Of a stretch of 64,000 nucleotides of DNA, positions 7,125-61,754 are shown piece by piece. Below the pieces are notes generated by a model. It worked only from the letters and a program-made list of their open reading frames with translations, made no database searches and had not been told where the DNA came from. Source of the DNA: an uncultured bacterium (GTDB lineage: Bacteria; Patescibacteriota; Minisyncoccia; UBA6257; 2-01-FULL-56-20); the NCBI GenBank assembly GCA_963705915.1, contig OY970126.1, forward strand, positions 10,035 to 74,034. The letters run 5' to 3'. Both the position numbers and the translations under genes were made by a program. Numbering within the stretch: position 1 is the stretch's first letter; each line of letters begins with the position of its first letter.

Positions 7125-7190
7125 AAAAGCCCTCCGCGAATTCTTTGAAGACTGTAGCACAAGAAAAAGAACTTTGCTACCGTATACAAG

Positions 7191-40646: not shown

Positions 40647-41189
40647 ATGCAAGGACAGCCGACCATCAGAGGTATTTTTTTGAAGAGTCATATCCGCGCG
40701 GTCGAGCGTGCGAAGGGCAAGCAGGGGCTTGATCAACTTGAGGCTTGCTTCGGAAAGTCGATCGCTTTCAAAAATTCCGACAACGTTCCGATCCGGGATG
40801 AGGTGGCGCTTCTCGAATGTGCCTTGCGCATTATGGGCGACGAATCAATTCCGCCGGATCGCATTGCATACGAAGCCGGCCGCCTGCATTTTGAAAACTT
40901 CGCGACGACGCCGCTCGGCAAAATCACGCTGCCTTTTTTCAAACATAACTACAAAATGATTATGCTCAACGCGCGGTATCTCGGCGTGCACGTGTTCCAT
41001 GGCGTGAAGTTTGCGAGCGAAGAACTTGGTCCATCAGCCGTCTATCTCGTGATGAGCAACGCCGATTATCCCATCGAACACTTTCAGGGCCTCCTCCAGG
41101 CATGGATGGAATATTGCGAGCTCAAGGGTTCCGTCACGGCAAAAAAGATCGAAGAACATGTACACGCTTATACTATCGAATGGCAATAG
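40647..41189 (+). CDS. Putative sensor or accessory protein (about 180 aa), translationally coupled to the GGDEF-EAL gene
   Basis: Start taken at MQGQPTIRGIF. Stop overlaps the next start as ATGGCAATAG. Family not resolved. Confidence 0.45.
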   Translation: MQGQPTIRGIFLKSHIRAVERAKGKQGLDQLEACFGKSIAFKNSDNVPIRDEVALLECALRIMGDESIPPDRIAYEAGRLHFENFATTPLGKITLPFFKHNYKMIMLNARYLGVHVFHGVKFASEELGPSAVYLVMSNADYPIEHFQGLLQAWMEYCELKGSVTAKKIEEHVHAYTIEWQ

Positions 41190-42724
41190 ACCCACTTGAA
41201 GAATATAAAAAAAAGGTGAAAAACCGGCTCGCGTCGTTCGGGAGTATCTTTGCCAAAGCTTCGATCGGCGATTATTCGGAAGATGCCGTGATCCCGGAAG
41301 ACGAGAGCGACGAGTTTTCGGAACTCGCGGCTGGCATTCAGGTGATGATCGAGGTGATCCGCGAGCGTATCGAGGAACTCGAGGCCGAAATTGCGGATCG
41401 CAAAATTATCGAAGAGCGCATCCGGCACCAGGCGCTCCACGATCCGTTGACTGGCTTGCCGAACCGGAAACTGTTCGAAGAGCGGCTCGCGGTGGTGTTC
41501 CCGGAAGCGTTCCGGGAAAATAAAAAGATGGCGGTTTTATATTTCGATATCGATCGCTTTAAACAGGTGAACGATGTATATGGTCATGAAGTCGGCGATT
41601 TACTCCTCAAAGAATTCACCGCGCGCGTCCGCGACTGCCTTCCGAAAGAAAATGTTTTTGCCCGTATAGGCGGCGATGAATTCGTGGCCGTACTTACCGA
41701 CGTGAAAGAGCGCAACGAGGTGATGAAGATCTTGAAGAAAATCGTTGAAGTGCTCGAGTCGTCGATGCCGATCGAATCAAAAACCATTTTTCTTTCCACG
41801 AGTATCGGCGTCGCCATGTTTCCGCGCGACGGTCGCGACCTTCGCTCGCTCCTCGCAAATTCCGATGTTGCGCTTTCGCATGCAAAGCAGGGTGGGCGCA
41901 ACCATTATCGTTTCTACCGCTCAGTCATGAACAAAGAGGCGTCGGCGCGCCTCGCGATCGTGCAGGAACTCCGCCAGGCGGTGATTGCAAATCAGATGGA
42001 GGCGTTTTACCAGCCAGTCATCAATTTGAAAACCAACCGTATCATGAACGCTGAGGCGCTGCTCCGATGGCGCCATCCTGAACGCGGCATTATTGCAGCC
42101 GCCGATTTCATTCCGCTTGCCTATGACCACGGCATCATGCGCGTGCTCGGCGAGGCCGTGCTCACGTCGGTTTTTCAGGATCAACGTATGTGGCAGCGCC
42201 GGGGGATGCCGCGGATTCGCGTGGCAGTGAATCTTTCTTCGCGCGAATTCACCGATCGCGGTTTTGTGGAAAAACTCAAGCGTATGCTCACCGAATATGA
42301 AATTTCGCCGACGCTCCTCGAGTTCGAAATCGTGGAAAGCCTTGCGATGGAAAACATAAGTCTTGCCAAGGAGCGATTCAAAACGTTCCACAAGCTTGGC
42401 ATTACGATTACGATCGACGACTTCGGCATCGGATATTCCTCATTGAGTTATTTAAAGGGCCTGCCTGTCGACAAATTAAAAATCGACCAGTCATTTATAC
42501 GGAATAGCGTGAAGAGCCGCGAGGATCGCGCCATCATCCAAACGATCATTACGCTCGGCCACAATTTAAATTTGAAAGTGATCGCCGAAGGGGTTGAGAC
42601 AAAGGAGCAGCTCAAGCTATTGCAGGAAATGGGCTGTGACGGCGTGCAAGGGTTCCGCGTCGCGCGGCCGATGTCGTCCGAAGCGCTTGTGCATTGGATT
42701 TCCAAGACCGAACCGATCGTGTAG
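41180..42724 (+). CDS. Bifunctional diguanylate cyclase / phosphodiesterase (GGDEF-EAL)
   Basis: GGDEF active site RIGGDEF. EAL motifs EALLRWRHPE, EFEIVES and DDFGIGYSSL. N-terminal coiled-coil. Confidence 0.9.
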   Translation: MAIDPLEEYKKKVKNRLASFGSIFAKASIGDYSEDAVIPEDESDEFSELAAGIQVMIEVIRERIEELEAEIADRKIIEERIRHQALHDPLTGLPNRKLFEERLAVVFPEAFRENKKMAVLYFDIDRFKQVNDVYGHEVGDLLLKEFTARVRDCLPKENVFARIGGDEFVAVLTDVKERNEVMKILKKIVEVLESSMPIESKTIFLSTSIGVAMFPRDGRDLRSLLANSDVALSHAKQGGRNHYRFYRSVMNKEASARLAIVQELRQAVIANQMEAFYQPVINLKTNRIMNAEALLRWRHPERGIIAAADFIPLAYDHGIMRVLGEAVLTSVFQDQRMWQRRGMPRIRVAVNLSSREFTDRGFVEKLKRMLTEYEISPTLLEFEIVESLAMENISLAKERFKTFHKLGITITIDDFGIGYSSLSYLKGLPVDKLKIDQSFIRNSVKSREDRAIIQTIITLGHNLNLKVIAEGVETKEQLKLLQEMGCDGVQGFRVARPMSSEALVHWISKTEPIV

Positions 42725-46931: not shown

Positions 46932-47801
46932 TTACGAAACAACTATAGAGGTATTTTTTCTTTTAGTCAAAATAGGCAATAGGAATAGCACCAAAAGTGG
47001 TACGGAGTTCGGATCGGTCGCCGTGCCGAAAGGAAACGATAGCATGCCGCCAAAATTCTGACCGATCCACCAGACGACAGCCAGGAAGCCGATGAGTATC
47101 CACGCCAGTTTTTTATGCGGATAGAATGTTAACAATATGCCGAGAAGGAATGCTATAAGAAAAGCAATTATGTTGCCGAGCACACCCCCAGCAATACTAA
47201 GGGAGCCAAGCCAGTTCGATGCCGCGGGGACACTCGCAAGCATTGAAAGCATGGTTGGTTGTGAGAACATGGGAGAGAAGTTCAGCATGGCTGTGCCGAA
47301 GAGAATCACACCGGCGGCAATGGGCAGGTAGTTGATGGACGACGGTTTTTTCTCTGCATGCAGCAAGAATACCGCGAGGATCAGATAAAGAAGCGCTGCA
47401 CCGGGGGCGCCTGTATACAATGTCGCTGATCCCGTGAATAGATTGCCGAGACCCTCGCCAAAGATCCAAACGATGAGTGCCCATGCGATCGAAAGCCACA
47501 ATCCGACGTTACGAAACTCCTTGCGGAATGGAATTATGAGGAGAACACCGATGAATAATTGGATAAGGGCTGCTATGAGATTCGCCCAAACTATATTGCT
47601 GCTGAAAACGCGGATGCCAAAAGCAATGATCGCACTGATGATATACGGTTGATTTTGCATATTGGGAGCAAGAACCGTATTCACAAAAGTGCTCGTAAAC
47701 ATCGCAGGTTGAAATTGCAGGATGCCATCCAAGACCCAAAGGGCGCCGAGGATGACGGAAATTACTCGCGCAATCTTGCTATCGCTCATAGCAGCGATCA
47801 A
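46932..47801 (-). CDS. Polytopic integral membrane protein (8-9 TM)
   Basis: Hydrophobic throughout. No motif recognised. Confidence 0.5.
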   Translation of the reverse strand: MIAAMSDSKIARVISVILGALWVLDGILQFQPAMFTSTFVNTVLAPNMQNQPYIISAIIAFGIRVFSSNIVWANLIAALIQLFIGVLLIIPFRKEFRNVGLWLSIAWALIVWIFGEGLGNLFTGSATLYTGAPGAALLYLILAVFLLHAEKKPSSINYLPIAAGVILFGTAMLNFSPMFSQPTMLSMLASVPAASNWLGSLSIAGGVLGNIIAFLIAFLLGILLTFYPHKKLAWILIGFLAVVWWIGQNFGGMLSFPFGTATDPNSVPLLVLFLLPILTKRKNTSIVVS

Positions 47802-48397
47802 AATGATCCGGTTTGAACCTCTCCGGCGCGTTCATAGTTAGCGAAGATGACTCCTTTTGGCGAGATCTTACTATCGGTCAATGTAAAGGCGGCCGGAATC
47901 GTACCTTCTGCAAAGAGACGCTTGCCCGAACCGAGCGTAATGGGAAATGTCTTGAGCCAGAGCTCGTCAACGAGATCGTTTTTTAAAAGGGTCTGGATGA
48001 GGTTGCCGCTGCCATGCACCTGCAACTCGGGGCCGTCTTGGGTTTTGAGTTTCTTCACCGCTTCGACAACATCGCCCGAGAGAAGTACCGAATTGTTCCA
48101 TGCAGGTCTAAACGATGCATCATGGGACGCAACGTATTTTATAGCCGCATTCACGCCGGGCCAGCCTTGTTCGTGCTGCGGCCAATATCCGGCGAAAATA
48201 TCATACGTTTTTCTTCCCAAAAGCAAACTGAACTTTCGTGACATTTGCTCTCCCATGACTTTACCTGCGAATTCATCAAAATAGGGAACCGTCCAGCCTC
48301 CATATTTGAAATCACCCGAGGTGTCTTCTTCTGGGCCGCCCGGCGCTTGCATTACGCCATCGAGACTTATGAACGATAGGACAATTAGTTTTCTCAT
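47798..48397 (-). CDS. Dihydrofolate reductase-family protein (RibD C-terminal domain, YwjB-like)
   Basis: LIVLSFISLDGVMQAPGGPEEDT N-terminus and GSG motif typical of the family. Confidence 0.7.
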   Translation of the reverse strand: MRKLIVLSFISLDGVMQAPGGPEEDTSGDFKYGGWTVPYFDEFAGKVMGEQMSRKFSLLLGRKTYDIFAGYWPQHEQGWPGVNAAIKYVASHDASFRPAWNNSVLLSGDVVEAVKKLKTQDGPELQVHGSGNLIQTLLKNDLVDELWLKTFPITLGSGKRLFAEGTIPAAFTLTDSKISPKGVIFANYERAGEVQTGSF

Positions 48398-48439: not shown

Positions 48440-48484
48440 GATTCGTCAAATCCTCAGCTCCGGCGGGTGGAGGATGTTCGGACC
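48440..48484 (+). repeat. Repeat B copy 1 (GCTCCGGCGGGTGGAGGATGTTCGGACC, 48457-48484) with an adjacent degenerate A-like segment GATTCGTCAAATCCTCA
   Basis: 28-bp direct repeat; see the other copies. Confidence 0.8.
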
Positions 48485-48554
48485 TGGATAGAGCAAGTGG
48501 GGGAGAGTTTTTATGTCCCAAGTTTAGTTAGCCCACCAGGCCGCTCACGATAGA
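48485..48554 (+). repeat. Conserved 70-nt element following repeat B; copy 1 (about 85% identical to 53039-53107)
   Basis: TGGATAGAGCAAGTGGGGGAGAGTTTTTATGTCCCAAGTTTAGTTAGCCCACCAGGCCGCTCACGATAG. Overlaps the SemiSWEET stop codon. Confidence 0.75.
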
Positions 48555-48817
48555 TTGGGAGATCTTTGCGAATATCTCTTTTTTAAAACTAATTGCACAA
48601 TCCCAATGACAAAGCCAGCTGCATTCGCAATCATGACAGGCGTTGCGCCAATAAGCCAACCATAGGTGGTCCAGATAGCGGAATTTATACAGTAGAGGAA
48701 TATCATCCCCAGCGATACGTCGTCCGCGTGTTTTGTCTTCGCCATCTTCACGATCTGCGGGATCATGATCGAGACTCCAACCACCGCGCCTATATAACCG
48801 AGGATATCTGAGAGCAT
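48545..48817 (-). CDS. SemiSWEET / PQ-loop sugar transporter (3 TM)
   Basis: 90 aa, 3 TM helices, PQ motif MIPQIVKMAKTK. Confidence 0.75.
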   Translation of the reverse strand: MLSDILGYIGAVVGVSIMIPQIVKMAKTKHADDVSLGMIFLYCINSAIWTTYGWLIGATPVMIANAAGFVIGIVQLVLKKRYSQRSPNLS

Positions 48818-48835
48818 AATTATATTTTACTATAA

Positions 48836-48880
48836 AAATCCCGATTCGGTATATTCGAATCGGGATTGTGAAAAAAAGGC
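48836..48880. other. Stable hairpin (ATCCCGATTCG / CGAATCGGGAT, 7-nt loop) in the SemiSWEET upstream region
   Basis: 11-bp perfect stem flanked by A-runs on the plus strand. Confidence 0.5.
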
Positions 48881-48927
48881 GAGGTTGATCAAGTCAATTA
48901 TTTATTAAAAAAAGAAAACTCGCACAA

Positions 48928-48960
48928 AAGATAAAATCGTGCGAGCTATAAATTAAAACC
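48928..48960 (-). terminator. Terminator hairpin CTCGCAC..GTGCGAG plus a T-run, for the 48946 gene
   Basis: Hairpin followed by a U-run on the minus strand. Confidence 0.55.
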
Positions 48961-49356
48961 ATATTCCCGAAATTGTTGCAATCTTTTTAAATATTCCAAC
49001 TTACGACATCCGTCGCAACAATCATTTGGATCGCGTCCTTTGTTGATGACGCTACTACGCCTTGTTACAAAATCTCCGCAGCTACAGCGAACAACCCAGA
49101 CCGATCCGGTGCTACCTCCTGCTTCCTTCTCGGAAGCAAACAGGCCCACCACCGTGAATCGTCCAAAAGTTCTGCCGGTCAGGTTCGGCATATTTCTCGG
49201 GACCTTTTTCAAGGGTGGTTGATTTTTCCAATGTCTTTGGGCGATCTTGACGTTGGGTTGTTCCGAAAAACCGGGTTTACTGACCCTCTGAGCGACACGG
49301 TTTACCGGATTGATCACTAAAAGCGTTGATTCGAAAATCCGATTCTTTTTTAGCAT
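48946..49356 (-). CDS. MGE-type Cys-rich small protein (LTGRTFGRFTV...W.VRCSCG...CDGC motif family seen in phage and island ORFs)
   Basis: 136 aa. GRFTVVG ... VWVVRCSCGDFVTRRSS ... CCDGCRK pattern. Confidence 0.4.
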   Translation of the reverse strand: MLKKNRIFESTLLVINPVNRVAQRVSKPGFSEQPNVKIAQRHWKNQPPLKKVPRNMPNLTGRTFGRFTVVGLFASEKEAGGSTGSVWVVRCSCGDFVTRRSSVINKGRDPNDCCDGCRKLEYLKRLQQFREYGFNL

Positions 49357-49378
49357 GCTGATCCTCGCTGTGCAGTAT

Positions 49379-49408
49379 TATAATTTGGAAATTATTAATG
49401 TCAAATAT
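49379..49408 (-). promoter_or_regulatory. Promoter: -35 TTGACA, 16-nt spacer, -10 TATAAT, upstream of the 48946 gene
   Basis: Hexamers read on the minus strand. Confidence 0.4.
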
Positions 49409-49441
49409 ATTTTTTCTATCGCTAATGTTAGCAGCGCTAAT

Positions 49442-49529
49442 GGTTCGAATCCTCGCGCGGGTAATAAAAATTGACCGCATAAAACCTATGAATCTTTAGC
49501 TGCTCCGGCGGGTGGAGGACGTTCGGACC
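49442..49529 (+). repeat. Composite repeat unit 2: A (GGTTCGAATCCTCGCGCGGGTA, 49442-49463), 38-nt spacer, B (49502-49529)
   Basis: The A segment looks like a tRNA T-arm plus acceptor 3' end. The unit ends are imperfect inverted repeats (GGTTCGAA...TTCGGACC). Confidence 0.8.
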
Positions 49530-49530
49530 G

Positions 49531-49857
49531 CTATTCGCGACCCATTTCATTCATAAGAGCCTCAGCCTGTTCAAAGAGATTCTCATCGTTCTCATTATGT
49601 GCGGCAACCCTTGCGGCCTCTAAGCTTGCCCATGCTTCTGTTTGAAATCCTGCCGCTCGATATAATTTTGCTTTTTTAAGGTCAAGCTCAATACCAGCCC
49701 GCGAAGTGTTTAATTCGGCCACCCTTGCTTCTTCAGCTGCGCACCATGCAAGGAGTAGCTCTTTTGACTGCGGGTCATCGATTCCGTTTTCTCGAAGTTT
49801 GGAAATCAACGCCAGCTCATTTTCGGAAAATTCAGATTCGGGAGACTTTTCTATCAT
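49531..49857 (-). CDS. Hypothetical acidic helical protein
   Basis: 108 aa. No motif recognised. Confidence 0.4.
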   Translation of the reverse strand: MIEKSPESEFSENELALISKLRENGIDDPQSKELLLAWCAAEEARVAELNTSRAGIELDLKKAKLYRAAGFQTEAWASLEAARVAAHNENDENLFEQAEALMNEMGRE

Positions 49858-49887
49858 GCCATGAATATATCACATTCTAGCAATATC

Positions 49888-49975
49888 GGTTCGAATCCTC
49901 GCGCGGGTAGCAAAAATTGCCCCCATAAAGCCTATGAATCTTTAGCAGCTCCGGCGGGTGGAGGATGTGAGAACC
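49888..49975 (+). repeat. Composite repeat unit 3: A (49888-49909), 38-nt spacer, B (49948-49975)
   Basis: About 90% identical to unit 2. Confidence 0.8.
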
Positions 49976-49982
49976 TTACAGC

Positions 49983-50016
49983 GAAAGACATTGACTCACA
50001 GTGATCTTATGCTATA
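49983..50016 (+). promoter_or_regulatory. Promoter: -35 TTGACT, 16-nt spacer, -10 TGCTATAAT (extended), then an AAGGAG SD for the 50045 gene
   Basis: Hexamers read on the plus strand. Confidence 0.45.
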
Positions 50017-50044
50017 ATAGTCTTCAGCGGTTAAGGAGATCTAC

Positions 50045-50266
50045 ATGGCATCTTTAGCGCAGCTCTCAGGAGTTGATTCTTTCGAGCGTGTAATCGCATT
50101 GCTTGAGAAAAAAGTTGGCACAACCGAAGCATGTGATCTTATCCTCTCGGATTCGCGGCTCATCGAGGCCGAAGAGGTTGACGGGATATTAGCCGACATC
50201 GATGAGAAGATGTATGGTGAGCCGATCGACTTTCGGGAACCGTGGGAAGATTTGATTTCCTACTAG
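50045..50266 (+). CDS. Hypothetical small acidic protein
   Basis: 73 aa with its own promoter and SD. Confidence 0.45.
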   Translation: MASLAQLSGVDSFERVIALLEKKVGTTEACDLILSDSRLIEAEEVDGILADIDEKMYGEPIDFREPWEDLISY

Positions 50267-50437
50267 TACTAAAGAGATCGACGTTTGCGCAAAGGGTCCG
50301 ATAGAGATATCGAACCCTTTTTATTTTGCTCGCTTGAGCAGACGGCTTGCGAACAGTGGATCGCGGCATTCCGGGCCTACGATTGGGAGAAGGCGATACG
50401 AGATCCGGCTGTAGCGTTAAAACAAATAAGGCAATTA

Positions 50438-51283
50438 CTAGCGCTTGTTTGATGCAGATGCTTTGCTGTAAAACTGGAACTGATTGCCGCCCCGCTTTTT
50501 GGCTTGATAAAGAGCCGTATCGGAAAGCCGGAGCAAGTCCGCCGGTTTCTTCCCATTGAGCGGATATAATGCAACCCCGATGCTGACCGAGGTTTTAATG
50601 ACTCTTTTTTCAATGAGGATTGGAATATCGAAAGCTCGCACGATCTTCTTTGCAATACGAATTGCATTCGCTTTACTTTCTAATTGTTTTGCCAGAACAA
50701 CAAATTCATCTCCTCCAAATCGAGCGGCGATGTCGGAACTTCGTACGGCATGACTCAGGCGATGTGCCACTTCTATCAGTACCAAGTCGCCAAACCGATG
50801 GCCCTCTTCGTCGTTAGTGCGTTTGAAGTTGTTAAAATCGAGATAAAGAATCGCGAGCAACTTTCCTCTTTTGGTCCTCTTGATAGATTCAAGAAAATCT
50901 TCCTCAAAAAAACTGCGGTTTGGCAGTCCCGTCAGAAAATCATGGGTTGAATTGTGGACGGCTAGCGTATGAAGATCGTTTTGCTGAGAAACGTCCCTCA
51001 TGATTTTTGAAAATCCCTGACTTGTTCCGTACTTGTTTCTCGTCGAGGTCAGCACGCCGCTGCTCCAAAATTTAGTTTTATTTTTTCGTACGTATTGCCG
51101 TTCATCCAAATACTTGCCTTCACTCACGGCATTTTTCATATCGGAACCGGGAGTGCCTCGTCGAATGTCTTCTTTTGTGAAAAGAATAGAAAAATCCTTG
51201 CCGATAATTTCTGCTCGCTTATAACCGAAGAGTTTTGCCCCCCCCTGGTCCCAGCTGGTAATCTTGCCTTTCTTGTCGAGCAT
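50438..51283 (-). CDS. PAS-GGDEF diguanylate cyclase; the PAS domain appears N-terminally truncated
   Basis: GGDEF site RFGGDEF. A PAS core (ITSWDQGGAKLFGYKRAEIIG) begins about 8 aa from the start. Confidence 0.8.
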   Translation of the reverse strand: MLDKKGKITSWDQGGAKLFGYKRAEIIGKDFSILFTKEDIRRGTPGSDMKNAVSEGKYLDERQYVRKNKTKFWSSGVLTSTRNKYGTSQGFSKIMRDVSQQNDLHTLAVHNSTHDFLTGLPNRSFFEEDFLESIKRTKRGKLLAILYLDFNNFKRTNDEEGHRFGDLVLIEVAHRLSHAVRSSDIAARFGGDEFVVLAKQLESKANAIRIAKKIVRAFDIPILIEKRVIKTSVSIGVALYPLNGKKPADLLRLSDTALYQAKKRGGNQFQFYSKASASNKR

Positions 51284-51465
51284 AAAAATCGCGTAATCTC
51301 GTATGCTTTCAACGAGGGTGCGATAGTTCTGTTCGGTATTGGTCTTTTCTTTGCGACGTTCGATGCTTATGTCGTAAGTATGGACTTATGGCTAGGAATA
51401 GCAATTATTTCTCTGTTTTGCAGGGGGTTTGTTATATTACGACGATTTCTTTATGAGGTTTTTTA

Positions 51466-51492
51466 TTCCGGCGCGTGGAGGATGGTAGAACC
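51466..51492 (+). repeat. Repeat B copy 4 (TTCCGGCGCGTGGAGGATGGTAGAACC)
   Basis: Ends 6 nt before the stop codon of the ICMT gene. Confidence 0.75.
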
Positions 51493-51497
51493 TGTCC

Positions 51498-52064
51498 TTA
51501 CCAGATAAACGGCAAGAGCCGCTTGGTATGCGCTTGATAGGGTGGATACTGGTCAGGGAAAAGATCGAGCATCGCACGCTCCTCTTTGTGGATACGCCGC
51601 AAACAGAAGATGATGCTTATAATAAACAGCGCAACGGCCACGATACTTCCGGTCAATGCGCCGCCAAAGAGCGCGAGTATCGCGCCCGCATAGATCGGAT
51701 GGCGGACATACGCGTATGCGCCGTTCGTTACGAGCTTATGATCTTCTTTCGGATGTGTTCCCCAGTCGCGTCCTAAGTCGTATCGCCCCCAGATCGCGAA
51801 CGCGACACCGATAACGGTTAACAATGCGCCAACCCAACTGACCGCGAGACCGAAATTGAAGAACGCATATTCAAGGACGAACGCATCGCCCTGTAAATTT
51901 CGAGTAAGAGCATACATCAATAGTGCTAACAAAAAGAGTAGTAGGAGTGGAGGAAGGCTCTTTGAGTGGCTCGAAGCGTCGCGCTTGGCGGTAAAAGCAC
52001 CTACCACCCATACTGTTATAAGCACCAACCAACTTGCGATGATGACATAACCATAGTCGTACAT
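51498..52064 (-). CDS. Isoprenylcysteine carboxyl methyltransferase (ICMT) / phospholipid methyltransferase family membrane protein
   Basis: YAYVRHPIYAG motif. 5 TM helices. The track ORF extends to a TTG at 52106 and would translate the A5 repeat, so the start is uncertain. Confidence 0.7.
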   Translation of the reverse strand: MYDYGYVIIASWLVLITVWVVGAFTAKRDASSHSKSLPPLLLLFLLALLMYALTRNLQGDAFVLEYAFFNFGLAVSWVGALLTVIGVAFAIWGRYDLGRDWGTHPKEDHKLVTNGAYAYVRHPIYAGAILALFGGALTGSIVAVALFIISIIFCLRRIHKEERAMLDLFPDQYPPYQAHTKRLLPFIW

Positions 52065-52080
52065 GTGATCATCATACCGC

Positions 52081-52136
52081 AGTTCGAATCCTCGCGCGGG
52101 TAGCAAAAATTAGGGCGGGTGGAGGATGCGAGAACC
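52081..52136 (+). repeat. Composite repeat unit 5: A (52081-52102), 10-nt spacer, B (52113-52136, 5'-truncated)
   Basis: The spacer between A and B is deleted relative to units 2 and 3. Confidence 0.75.
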
Positions 52137-52207
52137 TGTTATAGGGGAAGATTGATATAACTCGGTGGATATGATAATTTCTTGGATAGATCTGGAGGAG
52201 GTCTCCT

Positions 52208-52471
52208 GTGCCGAAAATTGATGAAAATAAGATCTTAAATACCCTCAGCCATACCGTATGGAAAACTCCGTTCGATATCCGGGTAGAAACCGGGCGATCT
52301 ATATCGCTTAGAGAAATCTATCGTCATCTCGAGGCGTTTGAGGTTCGGCAACTTGTCGAACGTCGAGATAAGCAACTGACAGCGACTCAGCTCGCTCTAC
52401 GGGGTGGCAAGCCCGCGATTGAATTTCGATTACTGCCAGCTGGTGTCCGTCGAAAGGGCGAGGTTTCGTAG
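52208..52471 (+). CDS. Hypothetical protein (possibly winged-helix)
   Basis: GTG start preceded by GGAGGAGG. 87 aa. Confidence 0.4.
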   Translation: MPKIDENKILNTLSHTVWKTPFDIRVETGRSISLREIYRHLEAFEVRQLVERRDKQLTATQLALRGGKPAIEFRLLPAGVRRKGEVS

Positions 52472-52572
52472 AAAATCAAAGGGGTATCGATAGGGATGCC
52501 ATGTCCTGTCAGAGCCTAGTCTCGTCGAAACAATCTCCGGGTCAATCCAAAGTGATTGGCCCTTTTATTTTT

Positions 52573-52600
52573 GCTCCGGCGGGTGGAGGATGTTAGAACC
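52573..52600 (+). repeat. Repeat B copy 6 (GCTCCGGCGGGTGGAGGATGTTAGAACC; matches the consensus)
   Basis: Flanked by convergent terminator hairpins at about 52528-52572 and 52613-52640. Confidence 0.85.
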
Positions 52601-52653
52601 CGGATGAAATAAAAACTGCGCGTCCAAAGCCGCGCAGTTCTCGAAGTAATTCT

Positions 52654-52935
52654 TTACTGTTTAATCCCTAGGGCACCCTTGATCTTTGCAGTGACTTCGT
52701 CTGGTTGAGGCAACGCTTTGGAAATGAGTCCTGGGAGTGCCTGCCCGACCAAATCCAGTAAAACCCTTGTGTCGATTTCATACCAATCCTTGCTGGCGGA
52801 CGAAGCAAGAAATTCGACCTCCTGCGTTTCAAGGATGCGTCGAGCAAATGCCTCTTGTTTCTTGTAGACCCTAAGTTTGCAGTAGCTCAACGCAAAAGCA
52901 AAATAGATTTCAACAGTCGGAAAGTTGCTTTGCAT
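52654..52935 (-). CDS. Hypothetical protein
   Basis: Start taken at MQSNFPT, which has a GGAGG SD. The track ORF extends to 52977. Confidence 0.35.
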   Translation of the reverse strand: MQSNFPTVEIYFAFALSYCKLRVYKKQEAFARRILETQEVEFLASSASKDWYEIDTRVLLDLVGQALPGLISKALPQPDEVTAKIKGALGIKQ

Positions 52936-53010
52936 CGACGCCTCCAGATAATCGCATAACTGAGGACAGAATAACACTGCCCCTTTAAAATTTCAATGAC
53001 GAAACGATCT

Positions 53011-53038
53011 GCTCCGAATCGTGAATAAAGTTAGAACC
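53011..53038 (+). repeat. Repeat B copy 7 (GCTCCGAATCGTGAATAAAGTTAGAACC; ends conserved, middle diverged)
   Basis: Same length and orientation as the consensus. Followed by the conserved 70-nt element. Confidence 0.6.
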
Positions 53039-53107
53039 GAGATAGAGCAGGCGGGGGAGAGTTTTTATGTTCCAAGTTTAGATACCCCACCACTCCGTTC
53101 ACGGTAG
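53039..53107 (+). repeat. Conserved 70-nt element, copy 2
   Basis: GAGATAGAGCAGGCGGGGGAGAGTTTTTATGTTCCAAGTTTAGATACCCCACCACTCCGTTCACGGTAG. Confidence 0.75.
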
Positions 53108-53117
53108 TTTCGAAAGA

Positions 53118-53142
53118 AAAAGCCACCGGTTAAGGTGGCTAA
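53118..53142 (-). terminator. Terminator hairpin GCCACC..GGTGGC plus a T-run after the alphaCTD gene
   Basis: Hairpin followed by TTTTTCTTTCG on the minus strand. Confidence 0.6.
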
Positions 53143-53164
53143 CGAGTCGAGGAGTAGGCGATGG

Positions 53165-53557
53165 TTACCACTTGCGTAACGAAAGATTTCTTTCGGTCAG
53201 AACATCTTTGATCTCTCTCAGTGACTTTCTACCAAGAGTCCTGATTCTCAAGAGGTCTAACTCGGTTTTTCCGATAAGCTCGGTGATCGTGTTGATGTTC
53301 CCATTCTTCAAGCAATTGTAGGAACGATTAGAAATATCCAGCTCTTCGATCTTACCAAGGGCTGAGTCGATCGCTGATTCCCTGGTGAAGGTTAGCTTCA
53401 TTCCGAAGATTGGCTCAAATGGATTTTCGGAAACCACAAATCCTTCATTTCGGAGTGCGATCATCTTGTAGATTGCATCCACCAAGCTTTCGAGCTTCTT
53501 GTCTGGTGCAACCTCTACAACTGTAGTAGTTGTCACAGGAATCTTGTTATCGGTCAT
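53165..53557 (-). CDS. Stand-alone RNA polymerase alpha-subunit C-terminal domain (alphaCTD) protein with an unrelated 70-aa N-terminal region
   Basis: [56 protein letters not shown] aligns to the RpoA alphaCTD (R265-like and G296/K298/S299-like residues present). Strong promoter TTGACG-17-TATAAT plus AAAGGAGAAG SD. Confidence 0.75.
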
Positions 53558-53622
53558 CTCGCTTCTCCTTTTCGATTAGTGCCGTACAGATTATATCATT
53601 ATTTAATTATCTCGTCAAATTT

Positions 53623-53651
53623 GCTCAGGTAGGGCGGGGAATGTTAGGACC
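53623..53651 (+). repeat. Repeat B copy 8 (degenerate: GCTCAGGTAGGGCGGGGAATGTTAGGACC), adjacent to an A-like CTCGTCAAAT
   Basis: The reverse complement of the adjacent A-like segment supplies the TTGACG -35 of the alphaCTD promoter. Confidence 0.55.
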
Positions 53652-53710
53652 TTGCTTTCTTAATTTGGCGCGAGTATAAAGAATTTAGATTTATCGGATG
53701 GGAGACTGAT

Positions 53711-53953
53711 GTGAAACGTATAAATGGAGAAAAGTGGTTGACTCCTACGGAAGCAGGAAAGATATTGGGAGTGAGCAAGAGAACCATCATTCGATGGTGT
53801 GCGGATGGCTCGAATCAGGATCGTAAACCCGAAGACCCTCCGAACCTCAATCCTAGGCGAGGACCAAATCGGCGATTATATTTTCGAGAAAGCCACATCA
53901 AATCTCTCGCAAACCATTACTTTGGGATCGGTCAAAATGAGGGCGGCGCATGA
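53711..53953 (+). CDS. Excisionase/AlpA-like HTH DNA-binding protein
   Basis: 80 aa. LTPTEAGKILGVSKRTIIRWCADG HTH segment. GTG start with a GGGAG SD. Confidence 0.55.
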   Translation: MKRINGEKWLTPTEAGKILGVSKRTIIRWCADGSNQDRKPEDPPNLNPRRGPNRRLYFRESHIKSLANHYFGIGQNEGGA

Positions 53954-54074
53954 TTAAAAGCGACGCCCTCTTTTTTTGCTCCCCACCTCGGACTTGAATC
54001 CCGCCAGTGCAAGCCCCACAAGCATCCCAGAGGATCGTCCGGAGAAGGGGAATGACGCCTCTCGGTCAGGGATC

Positions 54075-54123
54075 AAATGAGACAAATGAGACACTTTTAG
54101 CGTGTCTCGGGACGTGTCTCATT
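54075..54123. promoter_or_regulatory. Operator-like array: two direct AATGAGACA repeats and two inverted GTGTCTC repeats (palindrome AATGAGACAC-N19-GTGTCTCATT)
   Basis: Read from the sequence. Lies immediately upstream of a strong promoter. Confidence 0.55.
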
Positions 54124-54163
54124 TGCTCTTTATATAAGGAAAACAGGCCTTCCGGAGGAGCAT

Positions 54164-54192
54164 TGACAATATACTATAAATCGTTGTATAAT
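54164..54192 (+). promoter_or_regulatory. Sigma70-like promoter: -35 TTGACA, 17-nt spacer, extended -10 TGTATAAT
   Basis: Consensus hexamers about 60 nt upstream of the 54261 gene. A leader hairpin GTTGCGT..ACGCAAC lies in between. Confidence 0.6.
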
Positions 54193-54260
54193 ATACCCAG
54201 ATCATTAAATCCAAGGCGGTTGCGTGCCTACTGAAACGCAACACAAGGAGGGTGACTCCA

Positions 54261-54752
54261 ATGGCAAATATCAGAGTGATGTGGTTCCGTTATGCTGGCG
54301 TTGATAGCATCACGCCCGAGTTGCTGGCGAAGTATTCAGGAACGTACACCATCGCGCGCGATATGGGCGCATGCAAACACGTTGGTCGCGACACCGAGTA
54401 TTACACCTTGGAATTCGCGCCGACGCCGCACGTTGACCTGCTGCTTGTTACTCGACAAATCATCGAGGACATTCGCTATCAAGCGCATCCGATGTCGGGA
54501 TTCGGTCACGTGGAACCGTTCCGTAAGTTCGTGCCTTCCAAAGAGGAAGAGACGGGAATTGATCAGATGAACGAAACGTTGACCGCGCTCGACAACACGC
54601 TCGACAGCCTGAAAGAATCCGAAGGCTGGCGCAAACGTGCGAAAGAGTCAGTAAAGATCTCGGCGCAAACTCTGAAAGAGACCCGTTCGATTTTCGGGAG
54701 CAAAGCGATTGCGAGCGTTCGTCGCAGCCTCGAAGCGATTGCCGCAAATTAG
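54261..54752 (+). CDS. Hypothetical protein
   Basis: Start taken at MANIRV, 9 nt after the AAGGAGG SD. The track ORF starts at GTG 54252. Confidence 0.5.
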   Translation: MANIRVMWFRYAGVDSITPELLAKYSGTYTIARDMGACKHVGRDTEYYTLEFAPTPHVDLLLVTRQIIEDIRYQAHPMSGFGHVEPFRKFVPSKEEETGIDQMNETLTALDNTLDSLKESEGWRKRAKESVKISAQTLKETRSIFGSKAIASVRRSLEAIAAN

Positions 54753-54872
54753 ATTCATACCCTTCATACCGAGGGATCTCGTACAGATCCCTCTCCCACT
54801 AAAGTATTTTCAACGAGAATTCTTTAGCGGGAGAAATCCCGATAGTTCTTCAAAACTTCAGAGGAGGATGTT

Positions 54873-55298
54873 ATGAGATATGTTTTTGCGGTACTGGTGC
54901 TGATCGCCTGCGTCTACACAATCGTGATGTTGCCAAAAGATATGCGTCGCACAGAAGAAAACAAGGCAACCGAGGTTCGCGTGGCAGCCGAAAAGGCCGC
55001 TGCTCAGGAGCAGTTCGAGAAGGACATCATCTCTGCAGAGAAACTAACCCGCCCATCCTGTTCCGAAACGCTCGTCGTGGTCGTTTGGCCTCCGGCGAAT
55101 CTCCCAGAAGCAAAACCACGGGTTGTCATCGCAGGCTACAACGTCGAGGACTTCAACTCGATGAGCGTCAATTTCCACAAAAATCATGACGGCGGATTCG
55201 AATTGAGAGCCAACGGCGGCGAGGTGAGTAACAAACTGCCTGTCGATGGAAAATTCTGCCGGACAGAGGCGGAGTACCAACTCAAACATCCCAGGTAG
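54873..55298 (+). CDS. Membrane-anchored hypothetical protein
   Basis: N-terminal TM helix. AGAGGAGG SD. Confidence 0.5.
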   Translation: MRYVFAVLVLIACVYTIVMLPKDMRRTEENKATEVRVAAEKAAAQEQFEKDIISAEKLTRPSCSETLVVVVWPPANLPEAKPRVVIAGYNVEDFNSMSVNFHKNHDGGFELRANGGEVSNKLPVDGKFCRTEAEYQLKHPR

Positions 55299-55325
55299 AA
55301 CATAATTCTCTAGTAGCCAACAACG

Positions 55326-55367
55326 GCGACCCAATTCATATTTTGTATGGGCCGCCGTTTTCTTTTA
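55326..55367 (+). terminator. Rho-independent terminator (CGGCGACCCA..TGGGCCGCCG plus TTTTCTTTT)
   Basis: Hairpin and U-run directly before B copy 9. Confidence 0.65.
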
Positions 55368-55395
55368 CTCCGGCGAGTGGAGGATGTTAGAACCT
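55368..55395 (+). repeat. Repeat B copy 9 (ACTCCGGCGAGTGGAGGATGTTAGAACC)
   Basis: Last copy. Lies between convergent genes. Confidence 0.8.
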
Positions 55396-55482: not shown

Positions 55483-56322
55483 CTACTCGGAGGAGGGGCG
55501 CATCACCCAGATTTCTTGTGTCTGGATTTCTTCCGCAACCTCTGAACTAAAAACTGTGCAGTGGATACCCGGCGTGAAATCGATCTGCCGATGCCTTTCG
55601 ACACGAAAGCCAACGTTCTCAAAAAAATGCTGTGCATCTTGGAAATCTTCGAAAAGGTTGTCGTTCATGTTGCGTCCAGTCGTCGTCGCGATTTGCTTCT
55701 GCGCTGGACTACTCGCCATCCTTTTCTCATGATGCTCTTTGATAAGAATGTCTGGAGTGATCCAAACCCCCGAAAAAAGGTTGAGTACCCCAGCAATGCT
55801 TCCGGCCAACTCCCGTTTTTCGTCATTGTTGAGGTACGGCATAAGACCTTCGTGAATGATGGCAACGGGCGCTGTTTTGAAACGAGCAGTAGCCGATTGT
55901 AGTTCGCCCTGCTCCAAGGCGTTAGCGGAAGCGAAGTGGTAGTTCGGCCGCTTCTTTGTTCCGAGCAGTTCCGAAACGATCTCCTGTTTTTCTGCGAGCA
56001 TTCCCGGTAGGTCGGTTTCGACAAATGTGATCTCTGGATTTTCAGTCAAGATCAACCCACGAGGAGAAAGTCCCGAAGCAATTTCAAGCACTTGATTAAC
56101 CCCGACGTGAGGCAGGATGCCGCTCAATGATTTGAAGCGTAGTTCTGCGAGAGGTGCCCTTTTGAGCGCCGCTTCCATGTTGCCGTTGAAGTACGTTTTT
56201 GCGATCGCTTCGGCGTCGCACATGGTGGCGATTTCTCGAGAGTAGGGGATGTCCGACATTGCCCGCATGAAAGCCACGAGCTTTGCGGTTGGACTGATTT
56301 GATGAAAATCGTGTTCGTTCAT
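55483..56322 (-). CDS. Class I SAM-dependent methyltransferase (leucine carboxyl / TcmP-like family)
   Basis: Start taken at MNEHDF, which has a GGAGAA SD. ISPTAKLVAFMRA N-terminal family signature. Confidence 0.65.
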   Translation of the reverse strand: MNEHDFHQISPTAKLVAFMRAMSDIPYSREIATMCDAEAIAKTYFNGNMEAALKRAPLAELRFKSLSGILPHVGVNQVLEIASGLSPRGLILTENPEITFVETDLPGMLAEKQEIVSELLGTKKRPNYHFASANALEQGELQSATARFKTAPVAIIHEGLMPYLNNDEKRELAGSIAGVLNLFSGVWITPDILIKEHHEKRMASSPAQKQIATTTGRNMNDNLFEDFQDAQHFFENVGFRVERHRQIDFTPGIHCTVFSSEVAEEIQTQEIWVMRPSSE

Positions 56323-56369
56323 TTGTTCTCCAGTTAGTGGGATGAGTTGGATGAATGATAACATCCAAA

Positions 56370-56398
56370 ATTGACAAATCGGTTCTGCGGATGTTATA
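56370..56398 (+). promoter_or_regulatory. Promoter: -35 TTGACA, 17-nt spacer, -10 TTATAA(C), for the 56457 gene
   Basis: Hexamers in the divergent intergenic region. Confidence 0.45.
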
Positions 56399-56456
56399 AC
56401 ATAGCCAGCAGTTAGCGTCAATTCAATCGTGGCAGGAAGCCACAAGGAGATGCGTT

Positions 56457-59681: not shown

Positions 59682-61754
59682 ATGTCCTACGATCCAACGC
59701 AGCCACGACCGGCAACAAGGGAATCGGATTTCAAGGAAACGATTCACGGTACCGTGATCCGCGATCCCTATCGCTGGCTCGAAGGCGACGCTAAAGAGGT
59801 GAAACAGTGGACTGCAAGGCAGGACAGTTTCGCTCATGCGATGTTGTCGAAGCTACCCCAGCGCCGATGGTTCGAGAACCGTTTCGGCCAGTTATTTAAG
59901 ACCGGCTCAATCGGCGTCCCATATCCGAAGAATGGCTACTATTTCACCATGGATCGAAAACCCAATCAGGATTTGGGTGTGCTCTACGTCCAGAAGGGGT
60001 TGCATGGAAAGAAGCGGGTCCTTATTGATCAGAACAAGCTTTCCAAAAAAGGGACTACCACACTGCGGCAGTGGAGCGTGTCCGAAGATGCGACGCTCTT
60101 GGCATACACGCTTTCCGAAGCAAGTAACGATCAAAGTTCGGTGCATGTTCTCGATATCAGGACCGGCAAAAAATTAAAGGATTTCATCCCGTCCGAATTT
60201 TATCCTGCGATGCATAGCGGCATCTATTGGAATTCGGACGGAAGCGGATTCTGGTATTCGCGCCGACAGGGCAAGGCCGTGAAGGGCGAAGAGAAGTTTA
60301 ATCAAAAAGTGTTCTATCACAAACTCGGCGATGATTATCGAAAAGATAAAATTGTATTCGGCAAAGGCCTTGCCAAAGATCAGTTTCCATCTGCATCGGT
60401 ATCGGAAGACGGCAGATATCTCATTGTGTCGGTGGACATCATAACGGGCAAGATGCGCCACAATGATCTTTACCTAAAAGATTTGTGGGATCCAAAGGGC
60501 GCGTTCAAGACAGTCCTCAAGGGCATCGAAGCCGAGTTTGAACCAAGGATGCATCGCGATATGCTTTTCGTCACGACGAATTATAAAGCCCCAAATTGGA
60601 GGGTCATGGGCGTGCCGCTTGCTAGGGCAACCAAAGGAATAAAACATTGGAAAACGATCGTTCCGGAAAAACGTTTCCCGCACGACTACGTAAGCATTAT
60701 CAAAGACCGGATTTTTCTCCGCTACCTTGAGAACGCACACTCAATCATCCGCATCTTCGATCTGAAGGGTAAATTCATCGATACCATTTCGTTGCCATTG
60801 GGATCGACCGATTATGTTGTAGGGGATGACGAAGGTGATGAAGCATTTTTCGCTTTCACCTCATTTACGGTGCCAAAGCGCATCTATCGCTACGATCTTA
60901 CGAAAAAGAAATTGCAACTTATCAACGAGCTGAAGGTGAAAGGCGTTAATTTCAATAATTTTACAGCAGAACAAGTATGGTACAAGTCGAAAGACGGAAC
61001 CAAAGTGCCGATGTTCCTGGTCCACAAAAAAGGATTGAAGCGCACCGGAAAAAATCCGACACTGCTCTATGGTTATGGTGGGTTTAACAGCAGCATGACG
61101 CCGGGATATGGCGCAACGGTCATGGCGTTCTTGGAGAAAGGAGGTCTCTACGCGGAGCCGAATCTTCGAGGTGGCGGGGAGTTTGGCGAGAAGTGGCACG
61201 AAAGCGGTACAAAAGCCAAGAAGCAAAATGTGTTTGACGATTTCATCGCCGCTGCAGAATGGTTGATACAAAACAATTATACCGACTCGCAGCACCTCGC
61301 CGCATTCGGCTGGAGCAATGGCGGACTTCTTACGGGCGCGATGATCACGCAACGGCCCGAATTATTCAAAGTAGTTGCGGTGGGTGCCCCGGTGATTGAT
61401 ATGCTGCGTTATCACAAATTCCATGGGGGTAAATTTTGGATTCCCGAATATGGAAATCCTGACGACCCGAAAGCATTCAGATATCTTTTGAAATATAGCC
61501 CATATCATCGAGTGAAAGATGGCGTGAAGTATCCCGCAATACTGATCGTCACGGCGGAAGGCGACGATCGTGTGCATCCGGCGCATGCCTATAAATTCGC
61601 TGCGCGATTGCAGAAGGCGAGCGCTTCAGAAAATCCGATCATCATTACGATTGAGCGAAAAGCTGGTCACAGCGGCGGTGCATCCATCTCCAACTACGTG
61701 AGACAACGGGCGGACATTTATGGCTTCATTGCGTGGCAGTTAGGAATGAGATAA
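59682..61754 (+). CDS. Prolyl oligopeptidase (S9A serine peptidase)
   Basis: N-terminal beta-propeller. Catalytic GWSNGG. 690 aa. Confidence 0.85.
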   Translation: MSYDPTQPRPATRESDFKETIHGTVIRDPYRWLEGDAKEVKQWTARQDSFAHAMLSKLPQRRWFENRFGQLFKTGSIGVPYPKNGYYFTMDRKPNQDLGVLYVQKGLHGKKRVLIDQNKLSKKGTTTLRQWSVSEDATLLAYTLSEASNDQSSVHVLDIRTGKKLKDFIPSEFYPAMHSGIYWNSDGSGFWYSRRQGKAVKGEEKFNQKVFYHKLGDDYRKDKIVFGKGLAKDQFPSASVSEDGRYLIVSVDIITGKMRHNDLYLKDLWDPKGAFKTVLKGIEAEFEPRMHRDMLFVTTNYKAPNWRVMGVPLARATKGIKHWKTIVPEKRFPHDYVSIIKDRIFLRYLENAHSIIRIFDLKGKFIDTISLPLGSTDYVVGDDEGDEAFFAFTSFTVPKRIYRYDLTKKKLQLINELKVKGVNFNNFTAEQVWYKSKDGTKVPMFLVHKKGLKRTGKNPTLLYGYGGFNSSMTPGYGATVMAFLEKGGLYAEPNLRGGGEFGEKWHESGTKAKKQNVFDDFIAAAEWLIQNNYTDSQHLAAFGWSNGGLLTGAMITQRPELFKVVAVGAPVIDMLRYHKFHGGKFWIPEYGNPDDPKAFRYLLKYSPYHRVKDGVKYPAILIVTAEGDDRVHPAHAYKFAARLQKASASENPIIITIERKAGHSGGASISNYVRQRADIYGFIAWQLGMR

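Follow-up and report, generated by a model that had tools for sequence, protein, structure and literature searches.

A 130-amino-acid (aa) protein whose C-terminal 62 residues are a canonical RNA polymerase alpha-subunit C-terminal domain (alphaCTD) is encoded as a gene of its own in a stretch of DNA from an uncultured Minisyncoccia bacterium (contig OY970126.1). The whole 64,000-nucleotide (nt) stretch that was analyzed is referred to here as the window, and the protein as P0001. The resemblance to alphaCTD goes far beyond chance, and P0001 is not an RpoA, as it has no alpha N-terminal domain (alphaNTD) and lies outside the alpha operon. The gene is real and not a fragment, with a full-length homolog (P0101) in a second genome, conservation of the N-terminal region and expression signals at both loci. 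The boldest reading, to which we give a probability of about 0.3, is that P0001 is a dedicated trans-acting decoy or adaptor, titrating upstream promoter (UP) elements, alphaCTD-dependent activators or sigma region 4, or else anchored to polymerase by its N-terminus; an accessory and possibly mobile gene would in this way rewire promoter usage in a member of the candidate phyla radiation (CPR).

A canonical alphaCTD outside RpoA

The gene and its signals are arranged as follows.

53165 to 53557, minus strand: coding sequence of P0001, a stand-alone alphaCTD paralog of 130 aa (listed open reading frame [ORF]; Pfam PF03118, E = 1e-20; PDB alphaCTD matches, E = 4e-17)
53168 to 53353, minus strand: alphaCTD domain, residues 69 to 130 (Pfam, PDB, AlphaFold2 and Foldseek)
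53354 to 53557, minus strand: orphan N-terminal region, residues 1 to 68 (1 to 17 low-confidence; predicted helix at 18 to 37; motif conserved in both family members)
53590 to 53618, minus strand: sigma70-type promoter TTGACG-17-TATAAT with the TG of an extended -10 (11 of 12 consensus positions)
53565 to 53570, minus strand: Shine-Dalgarno sequence AAGGAG, 7 nt 5' of the ATG, read from the sequence
53111 to 53140, minus strand: intrinsic terminator, a 7-bp stem AGCCACC/GGTGGCT at 53140 to 53121 followed by TTTTTCTTT

The ORF runs from an ATG start codon to a TAA stop codon. The Pfam model RNA_pol_A_CTD (PF03118) aligned to residues 69 to 122 through its positions 14 to 67 (of 67), scoring 73.7 bits against a gathering cut-off of 23.8. 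The top PDB matches were the alphaCTD chains of Bacillus subtilis (3gfk, 3ihq and 1z3e; E of ~4e-17), followed by alpha subunits from many phyla. The RpoA equivalogs in NCBIfam (TIGR02027 and PRK05182) aligned to P0001 only via their C-terminal ~70 positions, with 48 to 80 bits against cut-offs of 228 to 523. When supplied with a 40-sequence alignment, AlphaFold2 modeled residues 68 to 128 with a predicted local distance difference test (pLDDT) score of ~90, and the predicted model has the helix-hairpin-helix fold of alphaCTD. Foldseek superimposed the domain on 1z3e and 3gfk with a root mean square deviation (rmsd) of 0.7 to 0.8 Å, and on 3gfk, 1z3e, 9zum and 3n97 with 0.7 to 1.0 Å; single-sequence AlphaFold2 was uninformative (mean pLDDT, 39). 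P0001 belongs to the PF03118 domain family, as it has all three of the defining features examined, and the profile and PDB matches bear out a first-pass annotation of this DNA, which had assigned the C-terminal part of the protein to alphaCTD.

Every position through which the Escherichia coli domain contacts DNA is kept, with R265, N268, C269, G296, K298 and S299 corresponding to R78, N81, C82, G109, K111 and S112 of P0001, in agreement with the same annotation. The acidic 261 determinant is retained as E72 and D74, and the segment equivalent to E. coli residues 285 to 290 reads T-E-L-D-L-L. Identities were counted over 59 positions of an ungapped alignment anchored at the RS.NCLK motif, giving 35/59 (59%) with B. 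subtilis, 29/59 with E. coli and 31/59 (53%) with the relative P0101. Across the RpoA C-terminal domains (CTDs) compared, identity to P0001 ranged from 49 to 62%. The P0001 domain is therefore as similar to true RpoA CTDs (59% for B. subtilis and up to 62%) as to that of P0101 (53%), and the P0101 domain is itself 72% identical to RpoA CTDs. As the CTDs of both proteins have stayed RpoA-like, we argue that selection keeps the canonical alphaCTD surfaces. The earlier description of the match as holding almost residue by residue was right about homology but overstated, given the 35 and 29 identities of 59 with B. subtilis and E. coli.

The alpha N-terminal domains had been reported as missing, and no Pfam match to either of them (PF01000 and PF01193) was found in P0001. 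Of the source genome, whose contig is 827,485 bp long, the analysis covered the 64-kb window and a Logan contig of 55.6 kb with the identical sequence. Within the window, tblastn queries with RpoA of E. coli and with three fragments of RpoA matched only positions 53138 to 53359, and no alphaNTD gene adjoins P0001, an arrangement that the first-pass annotation had raised as the sign of a split alpha subunit. The contig that carries P0101 likewise has no alphaNTD. Around the P0001 gene lie methyltransferases, an HTH_17 gene and hypothetical ORFs rather than the members of the alpha operon (rpsM-rpsK-rpsD-rpoA-rplQ). Having no alphaNTD, P0001 cannot enter RNA polymerase by the usual assembly of alpha dimers. 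Compared with the alphaCTD of RpoA (PF03118; 1COO, 1LB2, 1Z3E and 3GFK), P0001 thus shares the fold, the sequence family, the DNA-contact residues and the 261 determinant, but differs in its missing alphaNTD, its location, its orphan 68-aa N-terminus and its accessory distribution, with two genomes known to carry it.

The three expression signals claimed for the gene (a consensus promoter, a strong Shine-Dalgarno sequence and a terminator of its own) were all located, and on their account the gene is taken to be monocistronic. The P0101 gene is also monocistronic, with its own TTGACA-17-TAAAAT promoter, a GAGGAG ribosome-binding site and a terminator.

A two-member family within a widespread class

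Relatives were sought by an exhaustive phmmer search of 1.84 billion cluster representatives and by a two-sequence profile run on 5.8 billion clusters, ~15 billion proteins overall. With P0001 as the query, phmmer returned 9,008 cluster representatives at an E value of ≤1e-3, a count that includes RpoA; of the 150 best, almost every one carries two or more alphaCTD copies (2 to 13 matched stretches). Among the best 150, the sole match spanning all of P0001 was P0101, a protein of 139 aa with 43% identity over query residues 8 to 128. The two-sequence profile matched only these two proteins at full length (259 and 233 bits), the next match scoring 138 bits. The N-termini of P0001 and P0101 are alike by themselves (BLASTP E = 3e-9; 35% over 55 aa) and have in common the motif G[FY][VI][VL]S[ED][ND]PF..[FY]G..L.F.RE. 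A helix at residues 18 to 37 was predicted in both AlphaFold2 runs, the remainder of the N-terminus being of low confidence. Residues 1 to 68 of P0001, whether alone or as a two-sequence profile, matched nothing significant among PDB sequences (best E = 0.65) or in NCBIfam.

No further member was recovered by scanning GTDB species genomes and IMG/VR with the N-terminal pattern, and a word-index search returned P0001 alone. A candidate in a JGI metagenome (L084) was rejected as a chance pattern match inside a 1,094-aa outer-membrane-type protein. The sole other contig carrying the P0001 gene is Logan ERR11523672_116595, from the same organism, at 99.99% identity. The fusion of this N-domain to alphaCTD is accordingly found only in P0001 and P0101.

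P0101 is encoded on a 9.3-kb ENA contig (L002), where its gene points away from a ribosomal operon (L3-L4-L23-L2-...-S8) and is adjoined by LiaF-like genes. The S3 protein of this contig shares a 90% cluster with a Minisyncoccia metagenome-assembled genome (MAG). The FtsZ protein of the window is 84% identical to a protein from a "Candidatus Paceibacterota" MAG, with other matches named Minisyncoccia, Pacebacteria or Patescibacteria group. Judged by these protein matches, both family members are in one CPR class, Minisyncoccia/Paceibacterota. The window itself carries ftsA, ftsZ, mutY and a large glycosyltransferase cluster and is therefore chromosomal.

The gene is patchily distributed among related genomes. 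At least nine FtsZ clusters exist at 78 to 85% identity to that of the window, yet no alphaCTD-family protein was found above 43%, and genomes with an L3 protein in the same 90% cluster as that of L002 have EF-Tu, S10, two hypothetical genes and L3 in order, with no alphaCTD gene there. This distribution marks the P0001 gene as accessory and argues strongly against its being an essential part of a split RpoA.

Comparison of L002 (6856 to 7350) with three other contigs (L088, L089 and L094) showed that the linkage of EF-Tu, S10, the two hypothetical genes and L3 is broken in L002: upstream of L3, in the place of S10 and EF-Tu, it has the alphaCTD gene and LiaF-like genes. The intergenic region of L002 contains a long inverted repeat at approximately 7150 to 7270.

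The first-pass annotation knew of no described family of this kind, a statement that is not supported as worded: alphaCTD proteins other than RpoA are very common in databases, and NCBI already names them [quoted passage not shown]. They carry 1 to 12 copies of the domain and include tandem arrays and fusions to sigma70 region 4, to a ResIII helicase domain and to fragments of beta or beta'. Eight examples (P0005, P0006, P0012, P0015, P0022, P0023, P0026 and P0033) have 4 to 13 tandem alphaCTD stretches or fusions, and P0005, at 1,031 aa, has 10 to 12 copies. P0001 resembles this class, which is abundant in metagenomes, in using the alphaCTD module outside RpoA; it differs from the best-scoring members, which are arrays of 2 to 12 copies or fusions, in having a single copy behind a family-specific N-terminus. 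What is new here, as far as sequence comparison goes, is therefore a small family of two N-domain-plus-alphaCTD proteins inside a catalogued but uncharacterized class.

The same layout, an uncharacterized N-terminus followed by a single C-terminal alphaCTD, is seen in a 210-aa protein of Bacillus phage vB_BmeM-Goe8 (QDP42789.1), annotated as "RNA polymerase subunit alpha". This protein keeps R265, N268, C269, G296 and S299, with R in place of K298. Its N-terminus is unrelated to that of P0001, with no BLASTP alignment at an E value of ≤100, and its host belongs to a different phylum. The gene lies at 1959 to 2591 on the plus strand of the phage record (L085), near the left end of this Herelleviridae genome, where its neighbors are small hypothetical genes. 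A contig in IMG/VR (L095) has an ORF of ~100 aa at about 2900 to 3210 on the plus strand; its product contains a CPDC motif, and the alphaCTD-like domain of this product has an insertion. Most tblastn matches in plasmids and phages were host rpoA genes in mislabeled or contaminated records, only that of Goe8 being informative.

Weak helix-hairpin-helix similarity was seen to a segment of the BREX protein PglW (NF033442, E = 0.0075; PADLOC PDLC02512, E = 0.0026) and to PRK07758 (E = 0.0016). P0001 is neither of these: it scored 14 bits against 990 for PglW, matching only the alphaCTD-like segment and having no kinase or other PglW domain, and 18.7 bits against 115 for PRK07758, a 95-aa hypothetical protein. 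The nearest published case is that of Francisella, which has two rpoA paralogs encoding alpha1 and alpha2 (PMC3294249; PDB 6WMP). In both systems a second product bears an alphaCTD, so that nonidentical alphaCTDs are present in one cell, but alpha1 and alpha2 are both complete alpha subunits, which enter polymerase as a heterodimer, whereas P0001 has no N-terminal domain. In a full-text search of 8 million papers, no functional study of non-RpoA or free alphaCTD proteins was found, nor any study of a natural protein that presents alphaCTD free of polymerase.

Possible roles of P0001

UP elements and a large fraction of transcription activators dock on bacterial RNA polymerase chiefly at the alphaCTD. 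This domain binds the minor grooves of UP elements via R265, N268, G296, K298 and S299, and it touches sigma70 region 4 via the 261 determinant and activators via the 287 and other determinants. The structures 1LB2, 3N97 and 1Z3E are all among the PDB or Foldseek matches of P0001. A free copy would recognize whatever DNA and protein surfaces the two tethered copies do and for that reason would be a competitor or an adaptor, and the conservation of these residues suggests, at somewhat less than even odds, that P0001 acts in trans as an alphaCTD mimic of this type. The free domain would occupy A/T-rich DNA resembling UP elements, or those faces of sigma region 4 and of transcription factors to which polymerase alphaCTDs normally bind, or both, and UP-element- and activator-dependent transcription would be damped or redirected. 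Through the conserved N-terminal helix-plus-hairpin region, P0001 could self-associate or bind another partner. High constitutive expression, which a stoichiometric competitor would need, is predicted from the near-consensus promoter, and the gene may have arrived, or may be kept, within a variable, repeat-bounded gene array. The small viral alphaCTD-like proteins (QDP42789 of Goe8 and the ORF on L095) offer a precedent and count in favor of a trans-acting mimic.

Several findings weigh on the other side. The model of the P0001 N-terminus is of low confidence (pLDDT of <60), and a family of two members allows no evidence from co-occurrence or covariation. By inspection, the P0001 promoter has no A/T-rich UP element. 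The neighborhood of P0101 is a housekeeping one, next to a ribosomal-protein operon, with no signs of an island, and no integrase or transposase was found with Pfam, NCBIfam, PHROGs or PADLOC among the ORFs of the array or the larger ORFs of the window.

Should the decoy or adaptor reading be true, it would give the non-RpoA alphaCTD class, its phage members included, a first defined function. Genes for free alphaCTDs are plentiful in genomes and metagenomes and occur in at least one phage; given the architectures in which the domain appears, stand-alone copies are neither rare nor unexpected, and P0001 alone overturns nothing known. It is, however, among the simplest cases, with one canonical alphaCTD, a short N-terminal region, near-consensus expression signals and a CPR host with a reduced genome, and at 130 aa it is easy to synthesize and could be a tractable entry point to the whole class.

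P0001 could instead be a small binder of A/T-rich minor grooves that uses the alphaCTD fold with no link to RNA polymerase, serving as a nucleoid-associated protein or as a local regulator of the repeat array or the HTH gene. All of the DNA-contact residues are kept, as such a role would predict, the module is reused in nonpolymerase settings (tandem arrays, the helicase fusion and BREX PglW), and the gene has a 153-bp control region in common with the HTH_17 gene, containing a copy of the array repeat. A generic binder would not, however, need identity to RpoA CTDs as high as that between RpoA proteins of different phyla, nor are the RpoA-like features confined to the DNA-binding face, as the 261 determinant and the 285-to-290 region also retain them. 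The array repeats, moreover, are G+C rich rather than A/T rich. We regard this possibility as doubtful.

A noncovalent appendage of polymerase is less probable again. P0001 would here dock to core or sigma through its N-terminus, as a third alphaCTD that extends upstream contacts or recruits an activator. Conservation of the N-terminus in both family members and its predicted amphipathic helix are compatible with docking, and tethering of alphaCTD by other routes recurs in proteins that fuse it to sigma70 region 4 or to beta or beta' fragments; the NCBIfam model PRK14906 (beta') also has an alphaCTD-like segment. The N-terminus of P0001 is nevertheless unlike known polymerase-binding domains, the RpoA NTD or its linker.

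It is quite unlikely that P0001 is a functionless, decaying remnant, left from the 3' end of an rpoA gene that was duplicated or transferred. Alignments to PRK05182.2-3 and to PDB 4noi do extend into the N-terminus (query residues 10 to 127 and 5 to 121), Foldseek alignments to full-length alpha chains span 106 to 120 columns, and the distance from the conserved VEV strand to the CTD is 57 residues, compared with 55 from the last NTD strand to the CTD in E. coli RpoA. The Foldseek alignments have an rmsd of 10 to 20 Å, however, and the N-terminus alone scored nothing against RpoA. An hhalign comparison with the end of the RpoA NTD gave a P value of 0.41, and 117 of 300 shuffles of residues 1 to 66 reached the real score against the C-terminal hidden Markov model (HMM) of RpoA, so that the N-terminus adds no score; in the same control P0101 showed a small gain only, from the 12 residues directly before the CTD. 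Because both of these comparisons were negative, the long Foldseek and run-on HMM alignments are not evidence of N-terminal homology. The interpretation of the N-terminus as the end of the RpoA NTD plus linker, in a 5'-truncated rpoA, was rejected as unsupported despite collinearity by eye. The first-pass statement that the ~70-aa N-terminus is unrelated to alpha thus holds at the sequence level, in PDB and NCBIfam as in these two comparisons. Decay is also at odds with an intact ORF that has 43% identity over its full length to a protein in a second genome and an N-terminus significantly similar by itself, with the near-consensus promoters, Shine-Dalgarno sites and terminators at both copies, and with the lack of any alphaNTD remnant upstream.

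That P0001 is the genuine, essential CTD of an alpha subunit whose NTD is encoded elsewhere is hardly credible, even though the genomes of CPR bacteria are small and have further unusual traits, since neither the window nor L002 has an alphaNTD gene nearby, an essential half would have orthologs in the relatives with 78 to 85% identical FtsZ (the sole relative among ~15 billion proteins is at 43%), close relatives of L002 lack the gene at the same locus, and the P0001 gene lies inside a repeat-bounded variable region.

The repeat array and its surroundings

The P0001 gene lies in a region with the following features.

48462 to 55395, plus strand: repeat-punctuated region of ~7 kb, with seven good and two degenerate copies of GCTCCGGCGGGTGGAGGATGTTAGAACC and three fragments resembling tRNA 3' ends
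53011 to 53038, plus strand: degenerate copy of the 27-nt repeat on the 3' side of the P0001 gene (from alignment; also the start of the 103-nt repeat D3)
53623 to 53651, plus strand: degenerate copy of the 27-nt repeat, immediately upstream of the P0001 promoter (D2 family; within the intergenic region that this gene and the HTH gene share)
53711 to 53953, plus strand: divergent neighbor of 80 aa, HTH_17, excisionase/MerR-like (Pfam PF12728, E = 2.6e-8; PHROG excisionase family, E = 4.5e-5)
49442 to 49463, 49888 to 49909 and 52081 to 52102, plus strand: tRNA-3'-end-like fragments GGTTCGAATCCTCGCGCGGGTA, each just 5' of an array repeat

Seven good copies of GGCGGGTGGAGGATGTTAGAACC (≤3 mismatches) are found between 48462 and 55395, with zero expected by chance and none elsewhere in the window. 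The array lies between a RibD_C-like gene (47798 to 48397) and an LCM methyltransferase gene (55483 to 56445). All nine copies of the ~27-nt repeat are on the plus strand, dividing the region into eight segments of 0.4 to 1.7 kb; each segment holds between one and three small genes, oriented either way. One segment, bounded by the two degenerate copies, is taken up exactly by the P0001 gene together with its promoter and terminator, and the control region of 153 bp that it has in common with the HTH_17 gene holds one repeat copy. The fragment GGTTCGAATCCTCGCGCGGGTA, which resembles a tRNA T-loop and 3' acceptor strand, precedes three of the repeat copies, and these fragments may be remnants of att sites. 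No intact tRNA gene was found anywhere in the window, GGTTCGAATCCTCGCGCGGGTA had no match in IMG/VR, and the repeats matched no Rfam family even at an E value of ≤1. The G+C content of the array is 0.471, compared with 0.50 to 0.51 in the flanks; that of the P0001 gene is 0.435, but the glycosyltransferase genes are equally low.

The first-pass annotation had suggested that the gene is the payload of a mobile element. The repeats, the tRNA-3'-end fragments and the excisionase-like HTH protein fit that view, whereas the lack of a recombinase among the scanned ORFs and the surroundings of P0101, which bear no signs of an island, do not, and mobility of the P0001 gene is plausible but unproven. 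We read the stretch from 48462 to 55395 as a variable region, perhaps the decayed product of repeated site-specific insertions.

Other explanations of the array were set aside. Inspection of the ~27-nt repeats revealed a palindrome of only 4 bp and no RYYYAAC/GTTRRRY pair, unlike integron attC sites, and an integron cassette array was rejected because the genes face both ways with their own promoters and no integrase was present among the ORFs scanned. A single IMG/VR match to the 19-nt core of the repeat was due to chance, falling in a high-GC stretch that looks coding. Membership in a defense system was also rejected, as PADLOC gave only the alphaCTD-like segment of PglW and a weak mad1 match for the HTH neighbor.

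A 103-nt repeat that begins with the array motif is present at 48454 to 48556 and 53008 to 53110 on the plus strand (78% identity), each copy just past the 3' end of a minus-strand gene. It holds GGGGGAGAG, followed by a four-codon mini-ORF (ATG TCC CAA GTT TAG in one copy and ATG TTC CAA GTT TAG in the other). The third copy of GGTTCGAATCCTCGCGCGGGTA (52081 to 52102) lies within the 5' end of a listed ORF of the ICMT family. A perfect sigma70 consensus (TTGACA-18-TATAAT, 12/12) is found at 54163 to 54192 on the plus strand, ~60 nt 5' of an ORF of 166 aa (54252 to 54752) with no family match.

Outside the array, a prolyl oligopeptidase gene at 59682 to 61754 (plus strand) has relatives at 83 to 87% identity, while its best match in GTDB, from a Saccharibacteria MAG, is at 51%. 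A contig with an 84%-identical homolog (L087) has an unrelated neighborhood, mraZ-rsmH-PBP-Mur ligase and then RhuM, with a Fic gene downstream, and its synteny was uninformative for the borders of the island. The prolyl oligopeptidase gene itself may move between CPR genomes. Finally, a PAS-GGDEF diguanylate cyclase is encoded within the array (50438 to 51283, minus strand) and a GGDEF-EAL protein 8 kb away (41102 to 42724, plus strand), cyclic-di-GMP signaling genes that are noteworthy for a sub-megabase CPR genome.

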